From Eledone cirrhosa (Eukaryota), in contig OZ024740.1 of assembly GCA_964016885.1 (NCBI GenBank), forward strand, positions 112,158,001 through 112,222,000: a stretch of 64,000 nucleotides of DNA, in the 5' to 3' direction. This document shows positions 18,238-21,575 of the stretch, in pieces. The notes under the pieces were generated by a model that saw only the letters and a program-made list of their open reading frames with translations, made no database searches and was not told where the DNA came from. Positions within the stretch are counted from its first letter, which is position 1, and every line of letters starts with the position of its first letter. A program made the translations under genes and the position numbers.

Positions 18238-18530
18238 TTTAAAGGTTAAACAAGGTTCAATGAATAAATCAAAGAATGAGTTTTACAATAGATATATGGT
18301 TTTCCGGAGTTATTAATATTAATTCAAAATATTAACAAGAATAGACATTCGTGTGATCAATTATATTTTATTATACATATTTCAGAGGTACTGAGCTATC
18401 TTCAACAGTACGTCCTCATCAGATAAAATAAGATGATGCATGACATACCCTGACATAGTAGATGATTAAGATTCAGTCATGGTAAAATATACTTGATCAC
18501 ACGAATGTCTATTTTTGTTAATATTTTGAA

Positions 18531-18537
<7 letters not shown>
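18238..18537 (-). mobile_element. Hammerhead-bearing module in (TA)n (family H2)
   Basis: 45-bp inverted repeat 18316-18360 / 18493-18537; second copy of the body at 57663-57833. Confidence 0.7.
18364..18430 (-). ncRNA. Type I hammerhead ribozyme with intact core
   Basis: TATTTTAT-CTGATGA-GGACGTACTG(loop)CAGTACCTCT-GAAA-TATGTA-TA-ATAAAATA: 8-bp stem I, long stem II, minimal quasi-palindromic stem III. Confidence 0.75.
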
Positions 18538-18577
<40 letters not shown>

Positions 18578-18757
18578 AGGACTACAATAGGTTAATCTAA
18601 CTCCTATAATGATCTCCCTACCACGGTTTCAAGAATAAAAGAAACAATACCACCCATTTCAAATCATTGAATAACCAATATTGGAAGAACTTACTCTAGC
18701 CTCGACAACAAAATGGTCTGTATAATTTATGATTAATATATATATATATATATATAT

Positions 18758-19158
18758 ATGAATGTATATATAGTGTATTTTGCAATACACTGTATGCTTA
18801 ATTAAAATCATTTTGAAGTCCTTACGCTATTGTTTTAAAGTAGCGACAATGTCACTTACTTCAATTTTCAGCAAACAGGGGAGATAACTGACAGAGCTCT
18901 GTTTCGTACTTGCTGGTACTTATCAAAGCTCACCACGCCTCCTGTTTGCCGAAAATTATGAATGTTGGATTCTTATAGAATTCCAGTAATAATCAGGAAC
19001 TGATTATACAGAGCGGTTGCCGGTCCAGCAAAAATTGAAAATTAGAATTGGTGCTCTGAAATAGCGATATATATATATGAATATATATATAGTGTATTTT
19101 GCAATACACGGTATGCTTAATTAAAAGCATTTTGAAGACCTTACACTATTGTTTTAAA
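18758..19158 (-). mobile_element. Family H1 module: one ~319-nt monomer plus a partial second tandem copy
   Basis: ATGAAT(G/A)TATATATAGTGTATTTTGCAATACAC starts at 18758 and again at 19077; flanked by (TA)n. Confidence 0.8.
18865..18955 (-). ncRNA. Type I hammerhead ribozyme with extended stem I (CUGAUGA box mutated to UUGAUAA)
   Basis: TTTTCGGCAAACAGG...AGCT-TTGATAA-GTAC(CAGCAA)GTAC-GAAAC-AGAGCTCT-GTC-AGTT...CCTGTTTGCTGAAAA. Confidence 0.75.
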
Positions 19159-20169
19159 TATATATATACACACACATACACTAGGCCACACGTATAGTTT
19201 TAAATCTCCAGACCAGTTTACCACACGTAAGGAGACGTGTGTTTGTATTCTTTAAGGAATTCTTTTTCATTTTGGAAACATAGCTGATTCAATTTTAGTA
19301 GTTAGTTACCATCAGTTTTCCTCCCACCCAGCTTACAGAAAGTTCAATATAGATGCCATAACACAGCTAATACCCCTGCTCAACACAGTATAAACAAGAC
19401 AAGTAGAAACTGACTATATAGATTTTTTGATAAAAACATCAAATAGTTCTTTGAAAAGACAGTCTTAAGCTGTTTCAATTAAGATCTATGATGATACCTT
19501 TGAAATGTTGAACTCTTCTTCAGACGTTGTCTCCAACTGTTCCAAAATGTATCCGTTCTTTTATCCATACTTACCATTTCTTGGTTTCTGTTGTGATTTG
19601 TTTGCGTTGGATTTGAAAGCTTTATGATAATTCTAGAATGTGTTTACCAAAGGGTATTAGACATTATTTATAGATTCCAACTGCTTCTTTCAATTATTCA
19701 CTTTAGAAATTTATTGTTTTCGTATTTTCTGTTTATTACAAATTCGGTAAAGATAAGGCGGTTGATTTAACAGAGTGATTAGAACATTGGATATTTGTTC
19801 TGGCTCTGTTCGCTTTGTGTTCAGATACCACCAAGGTTCATTTTGCTTTTCATCTTTCATGGTCGATAAAGAAAGTATTAGCTTACTGCTGATACGGCCT
19901 CTCTCCTTCCAACTGTCACATCTTCGATGATTGAGGGTGTGTCTGTCTTTTGTCGCGACTAATTAGACACCGAAAACCCATAACAAAGGCACAGTATAAT
20001 TACTACCAAATCATACTTGATTGTGGGTGATGACCGTAGTCATTTAGTAGTTCAGTAAATATAGTCATTGCAATCCTGTTTATATATCTAAAGATTAACC
20101 CTGCCCTACTCGAATGATTTTTCTCTGAATTTGAGATGAATAATTGCAGTTTTCTTATACTTCGCTAGT

Positions 20170-20568: not shown

Positions 20569-21575
20569 ACTGGATCTTCTAATGTCTAGTTTCAGCAAGG
20601 ACCTTAGACAAACAGTACTTTTATAATTATATCTGCATTGCCTCACTGGGCAGTCTTTTGTAGGAGAGCAATTTGTGTTTCGGGGTGTTTGTTGAAGATG
20701 TCCTCTTAGCTTTAGTGGTATCAAACTCAATCTTCGATGACAACTGGAATGATTTTGATGTTGTTGGGTGGCATTGACTACAATCTTGTGATTTCGATCT
20801 TCATATCAGTATTGTTACTTTTTCAATTTCTTTCTTGTGTCTTGGGATAGTAGCACCAATAATCTGAGATTATTGCGGTGGATTGGCAGTATCGGTAGAG
20901 GGTCAGACGCCATGCTTTGCAAGCAAGGAGTTACGGCCCTTTATTGTCTGAGTTCAAATCCCGCCGAGGTTACTTTGCCTTTCATCCTTATGGGGTCGAT
21001 AAAATAAAGTACCAGTAATACACTGGGAAAATTGCTGGCCTTGTGCCAAAAGTAGAAACAATTATTACCTATTTGGTGGATTGGCAGTATCGGTAGAGCG
21101 TCAGACACCATGCTTTGCAGCATAGTCATGGCCCTTTACGTTCTGAGTTCAAATCCTGCCGAGGTTAACTTTGCCTTTCATCCTACGGGTTCGATAAAAT
21201 AAAGCACCAGTAATACACTAGGGTAATTGCTGGCCTTGTGCCAAAAGTAGAAACAATTATTACCTATTTCTGAATATAACTACAATATCAGTTTTGTGTT
21301 CAAGTCTGCGGTCCACTTCGTCAATGAAGTTCCAAAATATCTTAGTTTTTGTCTCTGTCACCAAGGACACGTCTAAGATATACTGGAACCACTTATCAGA
21401 CATTTGATAGCCATATTTTTTGCACATTGGCCAATGAAGTTACATACAAACCGTATCGTGACTTTCATACACTTTTTTGAAATCGCATTTTCCCCACGTT
21501 CACTATGTGGGTGACACTTTCTGTATTAATTCCACACAGACGGCACTTTAGACTTTCACCAAGATGATATATTCC
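20566..21575 (-). pseudogene. 3' fragment of an R4/Dong-clade non-LTR retrotransposon (CCHC zinc finger plus restriction-like endonuclease), interrupted by SINEs
   Basis: Hand translation of the minus strand: KCRLCGINTESVTHIV...HDTVCM*LHWPMCKKYG...KW...KIFWNF...DIVV, then KEIEK...DMKIEITRL*...IKIIPVVI...IPLKLRGHL...LLQKTA...IIIKVL. Contains stops and frameshifts; adjoins (TAA/TTA)n at 21578-21626. Confidence 0.7.
20875..21261 (+). mobile_element. Two tandem SINE family A copies nested in the R4/Dong fragment
   Basis: 14-bp duplication ATTATTACCTATTT at 21061-21074 and 21256-21269. Confidence 0.9.

Follow-up and report, generated by a model that had tools for sequence, protein, structure and literature searches.

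A 319-nucleotide hammerhead unit without open reading frame in Eledone cirrhosa, a likely Penelope-dependent element of the non-LTR retrozyme type

The repeat unit and its surroundings

The window, by which we refer to the entire stretch of 64,000 nucleotides (64 kb) of Eledone cirrhosa DNA that was analysed, contains two copies of a repeat unit whose RNA sense corresponds to the minus strand. The unit and its copies are defined by the following features:

18736–18757, no strand assigned: (TA)11 run, the target, adjoining copy 1 at its 3' end, read directly from the sequence
18758–19076, minus strand: full 319-nt unit of copy 1, with its 3' end at 18758
19077–19158, minus strand: second unit, 5'-truncated to its last 82 nt, a terminal direct repeat that forms a pLTR-like partial tandem and brings the total to 1.26 units
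19067–19076, minus strand: (AU)5 tract, internal and located where one unit joins the next, with the same junction found in copy 2; putative annealing site
18989–19007, minus strand: perfect hairpin of 8 bp, located in the unit's 5' part, the site of the template switch of copy 2, in a stretch common to a sibling family
5756–6008, minus strand: main piece of copy 2, unit positions 1–254, identical at 213 of 256 positions (83%), E 3e-70
6015–6060, minus strand: extra piece of copy 2, unit positions 72–117, identical to its main piece at 43 of 46 positions
6062–6138, plus strand: inverted piece of copy 2, unit positions 279–319 and 1–38, spanning the end-to-start junction and followed by (TA)n

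Copy 1 extends from 18758 to 19158 on the minus strand and comprises one 319-nt unit and 82 nt of a second one. As claimed in an initial annotation of this DNA, the unit restarts after 319 nt at 19077, with the resulting 82-nt terminal repeats differing at 5 of 82 positions. The same annotation had described a second copy with the same end-to-start junction in an inverted piece, and this copy is indeed found at 5756–6138. When read from 6138 to 6062, the inverted piece is identical to the unit of copy 1 across the junction at 70 of 79 positions and to the 3' end of copy 2 itself at 43 of 44. Because the pieces of copy 2 resemble each other (43/44, 43/46) more closely than they resemble copy 1 (87–89%), their sequences fit a single insertion event that would have drawn on a single template. 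No third copy of the unit was detected in the 64-kb window at E<0.25. Copies 1 and 2 start at the identical base, adjoin (TA)n and differ at their 5' ends. Circular permutation, which the initial annotation had suggested looking for, is not found in the two window copies, whose common 3' end is located at the (AU)n tract of the unit itself. Copy 1 is also followed by a short (TA)n run at 19159–19167, and a target duplication is not readable.

The proposed lack of coding capacity of the unit is confirmed, its longest frame starting with ATG encompassing 45 amino acids even on a virtual circle, and in copy 1 the sequence between the junction and the next 3' end, hammerhead included, lacks an open reading frame. 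The initial annotation had proposed checking whether copies are free of reverse transcriptase (RT) and GIY-YIG sequences, and in the window none of 56 frames of at least 60 amino acids located between 5990 and 25836 shows such a match, with a control LINE frame matching RVT_1. These are 56 of 86 listed frames, the other 30 lying beyond 26 kb. Several L1/Tx1-like LINE copies are located at 36600–48000 on the minus strand, where endonuclease-like and RT frames are broken by stops and frameshifts, and the nearest named relative of the encoded protein, at 64% identity, originates from Argonauta hians, in agreement with an octopod host.

Several further repeats are found in the neighbourhood. A second family inserted into (TA)n is represented at 18314–18537, where it adjoins copy 1, and at 57663–57839, with inverted ends of about 40–55 bp in one copy and 94% identity between the copies over 178 bp. 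Reading the neighbour at 18314–18537 as a hammerhead was rejected, as its minus strand, although it has a CUGAUGA box, lacks both GAAA and matching stems, and the descriptor used below returns no match. The region 57934–58036 is a near-perfect fold-back of about 100 bp (−96.5 kcal/mol) that ends on (TA)n and carries GAAAC-GUC on the minus strand, and it looks like an inverted Penelope-type end minus the first half of its hammerhead. A perfect palindrome of about 106 bp with 49-bp arms (53230–53335) is placed beside a long (TA)n array, and its Rfam matches to miRNAs are hairpin noise. Copies of a SINE-like repeat, which we take to be a common octopus SINE, are found at 6295–6480 and 20877–21269, with a 195-bp tandem at 20877. 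Finally, a (TA)n array of 3.8 kb at 1968–5776 is regularly patterned as (TA)n-TTCA/TGAA, similar to the unit's 3' end in copy 2, and may have been derived by amplification of the junction of this copy.

The hammerhead and its core

The unit contains a type I hammerhead on the minus strand, which is the sole match of a descriptor scan in the 64-kb window and which in copy 1 satisfies the descriptor with zero mismatches once a U3-A8 pair is permitted. Its elements are as follows:

18862–18958, minus strand: type I hammerhead hairpin including distal stem I, where 18955–18941 pairs with 18865–18879, extendable to 18958/18862
18886–18930, minus strand: proximal stem I, 4 bp in copy 1, where 18930–18927 pairs with 18886–18889
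18920–18926, minus strand: core box U3-U4-G5-A6-U7-A8-A9, with U3-A8 as covariant of C3-G8, assigned by the descriptor, by covariation with copy 2 and by a described variant (PMC3088659)
18906–18919, minus strand: stem II of 4 bp starting from G10.1-C11.1, with a 6-nt loop, where 18919–18916 pairs with 18909–18906
18890–18905, minus strand: GAAA box (18905–18902), 12-nt palindromic helix III (18902–18891) and GUC (18892–18890), assigned by descriptor and sequence
5923–5917, minus strand: core box of the copy 2 hammerhead (C3-G8), in which G10.1, C11.1 and G12 are all changed to U

The cut is predicted between 18890 and 18889, with the unit's 3' end following 132 nt downstream. Taken alone, the descriptor match constitutes weak evidence for a hammerhead, because 3 of 10 shuffled windows also contain one perfect match. 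The modelled fold provides stronger evidence, with the hairpin reaching a z of −7.0 in copy 1 and of −5.0 in copy 2 and none of 200 shuffles being as good. The palindromic character of stem III noted in the initial annotation holds for 12 nt in copy 1 and for 10 nt in copy 2. In the stem I bulge, in the form found in most reads (see below), a GUAC facing UAUC recalls what we take to be the tertiary-contact motif of canonical type I hammerheads. The contacts themselves are described, in passages that give no sequence, in PMC6155905.

The initial annotation had interpreted the cores of the two copies as carrying different lesions. For copy 1 this is not the case: its UUGAUAA box differs from copy 2 by a double change, with U3-A8 in place of C3-G8, which retains the pair, and it is not a lesion since U3-A8 is a natural covariant of the hammerhead core that was reported to be active in vitro (PMC3088659, PMC4209133). 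Conversely, copy 2 is defective as stated, by three changes in core and stem II instead of one. It fails the type I descriptor at G10.1, C11.1 and G12, and its ribozyme is predicted to be dead. Neither copy gave a hammerhead in the suggested comparison with Rfam, where 8 and 9 matches, respectively, were obtained at E<=10, and for the whole window, only microsatellite and hairpin noise is found among the 150 of 306 rows listed. The escape of the U3-A8 core from Rfam in this window implies that standard annotation may miss a large family.

Compensating changes in distal stem I, a further claim of the initial annotation, are found as described, with 15 of 15 pairs kept in both copies, three of them changed on both sides and two on one side. 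Because with two sequences 30 of 500 shuffles reach the same level of covariation, this stem is by itself suggestive, short of significance. When calculated without tertiary contacts, the active fold of copy 1 is located above the predicted minimum both as monomer (−33.3 vs −42.1 kcal/mol, a gap of 8.8) and as dimer (−78.1 vs −90.1 kcal/mol, a gap of 12), since the 5' strand of stem I is an alternative pairing partner of the palindrome. A rescue of the active fold by dimerisation alone was rejected, as it gains 16.5 kcal/mol per pair and still leaves this fold above the alternative. A circle of 319 nt is predicted to be self-paired, with a z of −5.3.

Copy 1 and copy 2 alike contain one hammerhead per insertion, and since each hammerhead is single, neither copy is, judged from its sequence, able to release a monomer or a circle. 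Two consecutive hammerheads at one locus were seen neither in the window copies nor among sequencing reads outside 19060–19158. The window copies are best read as dispersed, decaying offspring.

The family in public sequencing runs

The unit was compared at 80% likeness with four of eleven public sequencing runs (X2, X3, X5, X7, X8, X10 and X11 being left out). This comparison leaves out the junction region at 19060–19158, with tandem arrays lying outside its counts, and its likeness filter disfavours members resembling copy 2. The unit and its hammerhead are present in runs under three organism labels, including organisms B and C. In X1, 3244 contigs match the unit and 56 contigs continue beyond 19036 toward the end-to-start junction. 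The summed word depth in this run, which is not a copy number, amounts to 865,000 near the 3' end and to 455,000 at 18996–19009, and the comparison depth is 7.5–27 for the eight long contigs listed. Allowing for an up to 31-fold overcount by overlapping contigs, a rough reading of these values would correspond to genomic copies numbering from about 1,500 up to some tens of thousands. In X9, 6088 of 12.5 million RAD reads match the unit, of which at least 1525 belong to the sibling family. The unit family is multi-copy.

The reads also place copy 1 within its family. Positions 18921 and 18926 are absent among the 40 of 108 differences listed, whose rows reach down to shares of about one third, and from this U3-A8 is probably the majority core among copy-1-like reads. 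At position 18913 in loop 2, about 99% of the reads are unlike copy 1, on the 5' side of the stem I bulge most reads differ from it toward GAGUAC as in copy 2, and in proximal stem I most contain one to two additional bases at 18885–18887. Because most reads differ at these three sites, copy 1 is, by this comparison, a decayed member of the family. The hammerhead region is the most variable part of the unit in the reads. In stem II, the second pair changes from U-A to C-G with frequencies that are matched on both sides in X1 (1326/33550 and 1310/34277), X9 (172/1099 and 167/1037) and X6 (30.8/47.8 on both sides). Because stem I, stem II and the core pair all change on both sides, these sequences point to selection on RNA structure.

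The joints detected in the runs include eight of 15 listed that change strand, five of them in single X1 contigs and three in RAD reads, where the latter may be ligation artefacts, and one loose end in X6 is an inversion. In X1, the best-supported loose ends are variants of the unit (with 345 further loose ends outside those listed), and the share running on into unlike sequence is 0. Read ends of X9 at 18800, 18803, 18979, 18982 and 19036 were rejected as ends of the element; they coincide with TTAA or GAATTC sites present in the unit or in its common variant, and we read them as restriction cuts. The sibling family has its 5' part in common with the unit and diverges at 18994 (reads at 18994–19059). 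It exceeds the unit family in depth in organisms B and C (410 and 365), contributes 1525 of the loose ends in X9, and may represent a further passenger or a path to the driver. In the divergent branch at 18994, each of the three sense frames contains stops, as read by eye, in the 30 letters listed. At 18928, 207 RAD reads continue into another sequence, whose start presumably corresponds to a Tc1/mariner terminal repeat, and this joint probably reflects a single unit copy interrupted by a DNA transposon.

Origin of the unit and its relation to known elements

In light of these properties, we consider it likely that the unit is a non-autonomous, Penelope-dependent hammerhead retroelement of the non-LTR-retrozyme type. 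Of the retrozyme or circular-RNA interpretation offered in the initial annotation, the class stands, namely that of an ORF-less hammerhead unit copied from circular or multimeric RNA into (TA)n, whereas its reasoning from core lesions does not. Since the window copies with their single hammerhead cannot excise a monomer, the proposed mechanism would need a source locus that contains no fewer than two units and whose transcript has the sense of the minus strand. Hammerheads in this transcript would likely cut at GUC, probably as dimers via the palindromic helix III, and cleavage would generate 319-nt monomers, which may become circularised. A GIY-YIG endonuclease, putatively of Penelope type, would nick genomic (TA)n, and the nicked strand may then anneal to the (AU)n tract of the unit itself, where it would prime reverse transcription, as we infer from the location of (AU)n exactly at the 3' end of the unit. 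From this fixed point, reverse transcription would exceed the length of one unit, on either a circular or a multimeric template, with an early stop giving rise to copy 1 (1.26 units) and a template switch with inversion to copy 2. A fixed 3' end, variable 5' ends, more than unit length, template switching and flanking (TA)n are the features that target-primed reverse transcription from circular or multimeric RNA would leave.

Marks of Penelope-type insertion are found in the partial tandem of copy 1 and in the inversion of copy 2, and both window copies (2 of 2) are inserted into (TA)n, a sequence that is very common in the window. Partial tandems, inverted 5'-truncated copies and a preference for (TA)n are described for Penelope-like elements, including the octopus Naiad and the Hydra families (PMC8557442), and in the O. 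vulgaris genome 190 Penelope-like families account for 6.83%, with 31 being recently active (PMC13282606). In case of a Penelope-like element of the anole, internal initiation was found on AT-rich targets, there without homology, and insertion did not need cleavage by the hammerhead (PMC11167929). Of nine dimers from Xenopus, only one was cleaved in vitro (bioRxiv 10.64898/2026.07.22.740005). Short motifs of the unit and comparison by eye gave no real match to a parent or driver element in the supplement on Penelope-like elements (PMC8557442), and motifs gave none either in the supplement of the O. vulgaris repeat paper (PMC13282606), which does not include the repeat library itself, or in paper texts. 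Hydra-1_Obim was rejected as parent, since it differs by eye at the hammerhead and the 3' end. A match of 20–21 nt in metagenome contig L001 (51% GC) is due to chance, with no further similarity, and the unit was not found in pattern scans of genome-contig and viral-contig collections.

Three other explanations have to be weighed against a Penelope-dependent element. According to the first, which is unlikely, an ORF-less family does not exist independently, and the copies are only the truncated ends, from pseudo-LTR or 3' UTR, that an autonomous Penelope-like element has left. Such an origin would agree with the prevalence of 5'-truncation in Penelope-type insertions and of single motifs from truncated elements among genomic hammerheads (PMC4209133; bioRxiv 10.64898/2026.07.22.740005), and with partial tandem and inversion as standard Penelope arrangement (PMC8557442); the contigs are short, and a minority of copies could contain an ORF beyond the loose ends listed. 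Against it, copy 1 is ORF-less over the complete passage between junction and next 3' end, the best-supported loose ends of X1 all lead into unit variants and none of its share into unlike sequence, and the main divergent branch at 18994 is interrupted by the stops described above. We find it quite unlikely that a SINE-like unit, in which the hammerhead only defines the ends of the RNA, is mobilised by a LINE that primes on microsatellites (Dong/R4, RTE or L1-Tx1). LINEs of the L1/Tx1 type are present in the window, and twin priming of LINE-1 also yields inversions. Moreover, in O. vulgaris LINEs exceed all other elements in abundance and rank among the most active ones (PMC13282606), and they were named as possible drivers of retrozymes (PMC7229834), but neither a poly(A) or other tail nor a tRNA-like head is seen in the unit, which shows no similarity to the window LINEs, and terminal direct repeats in copies that exceed unit length mark the Penelope type (PMC8557442).

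Amplification at the level of DNA, as a satellite or MITE-like repeat in which the hammerhead is a relic, appears very improbable. It would account for the decay of both window copies and for the variability of the hammerhead region in reads, and tandem expansion of pLTR-derived units at the DNA level was proposed in a recent preprint (bioRxiv 10.64898/2026.07.22.740005). However, the copies are dispersed, their 3' end is fixed, their 5' ends vary and templates were switched, fixed terminal inverted repeats are absent, and the two-sided changes in stem I, stem II and core pair suggest selection on RNA.

The likely assignment as Penelope-dependent passenger can be compared to known systems. Metazoan non-LTR retrozymes have units of 150–450 bp (Cervera and de la Pena 2020, PMC7229834), and the unit shares with them the absence of an ORF in about 320 nt, low GC content, many copies, a single type I hammerhead in each unit, whose stem II has 4 bp and whose stem I is extended, a head-to-tail junction and a self-paired predicted circle, together with the presence of Penelope-like elements in octopods (PMC7229834; bioRxiv 10.64898/2026.07.22.740005). 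Unlike in these retrozymes, we find a 1.26-mer and rearranged monomers with no arrays seen, a core that is likely U3-A8 in most copy-1-like reads, a palindrome of 10–12 nt in helix III instead of the canonical 1–2 bp with a 2–4-nt loop, and a fixed, presumably (TA)n-primed 3' end with inverted 5' pieces. With respect to the absence of LTRs, the 82-nt terminal repeat is a partial tandem that is absent in this form from copy 2. Li, Clavereau and Pollet have argued that retrozymes are non-autonomous Penelope derivatives with many dispersed monomers, addressing the driver by homology and in Xenopus only, and by their definition the window copies would be monomer offspring and not active retrozymes (bioRxiv 10.64898/2026.07.22.740005). 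We refer to the unit as retrozyme-type, not as an established member: its size, its lack of an ORF and its type of ribozyme fit the class, which is further defined by tandem arrays and circular RNA.

Among autonomous elements, Hydra-1_Obim of Octopus bimaculoides (PMC8557442) resembles the unit in its (TA)n target, palindromic helix III, partial tandem and inverted 5' copy, and the sense-strand hammerhead of Hydra elements is similarly located about 100–200 nt from the 3' end (2403 of 2507 in Hydra-1_Obim). The acag..ctgt arms of helix III are the same in 4 of 26 Hydra rows, a weak similarity as half of the letters belong to the core. In contrast to Hydra-1_Obim, the unit contains no RT/GIY-YIG ORF and shows no sequence match by eye, and its distal stem I is long compared to the minimal hammerheads typical of Hydra-type elements. 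U3-A8 is found in about 1,300 Penelope-type hammerheads of Schistosoma (PMC4209133), and as in Cercyon of Schistosoma mansoni and in other natural variants (PMC3088659), it occurs beside C3-G8 relatives in one genome. The Cercyon and U3-A8 variants are minimal, with a helix II of 7–8 bp preceded by an extra base, whereas the unit combines a 4-bp helix II lacking this base with a long helix I.

The retrozyme class in corals, mussels, insects and vertebrates, the U3-A8 core variant and the link to Penelope-like elements are already published, and in the giant squid genome 235 Hammerhead_1 loci were counted (PMC6962438). In the literature searched, we found no description of a cephalopod hammerhead retrozyme family, which may already be contained in Repbase or Dfam. 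The unit would extend hammerhead elements of the retrozyme type to octopods, and the Penelope-type insertion marks on an ORF-less invertebrate unit are relevant to the identity of the elements that mobilise retrozymes. Circles, if they exist in abundance, would constitute a notable unannotated part of octopus transcriptomes.

Finally, two motifs resembling splice sites flank the unit junction:

18854–18859, minus strand: GUAAGU hexamer resembling a splice donor, 2 nt past the hammerhead hairpin and kept in both covering pieces of copy 2
19056–19061, minus strand: UUUCAG motif resembling a splice acceptor, just past the junction and kept in copy 2 and in loose ends of reads

Together they would bound an intron of 123 nt across the junction and an exon of 196 nt that holds the ribozyme. 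Both motifs, which were picked post hoc, occur together in about 1% of 5000 shuffles, the donor-like hexamer also belongs to a conserved hairpin, and no spliced joint is found among the DNA joints listed. Retention of an intron at the pLTR boundary is described for Penelope and Chlamys elements (PMC8557442). That this cephalopod retrozyme family harbours a working spliceosomal intron of the Penelope type over its junction (donor 18859, acceptor 19056), giving rise to two kinds of circles, strikes us as quite unlikely. If true, a single unit could generate both a ribozyme-made circle of 319 nt and a back-spliced circle of 196 nt with the whole U3-A8 hammerhead. A single element would then combine the two routes known for circular RNA of animals, and it would reveal how Penelope passengers are primed at a fixed (AU)n.
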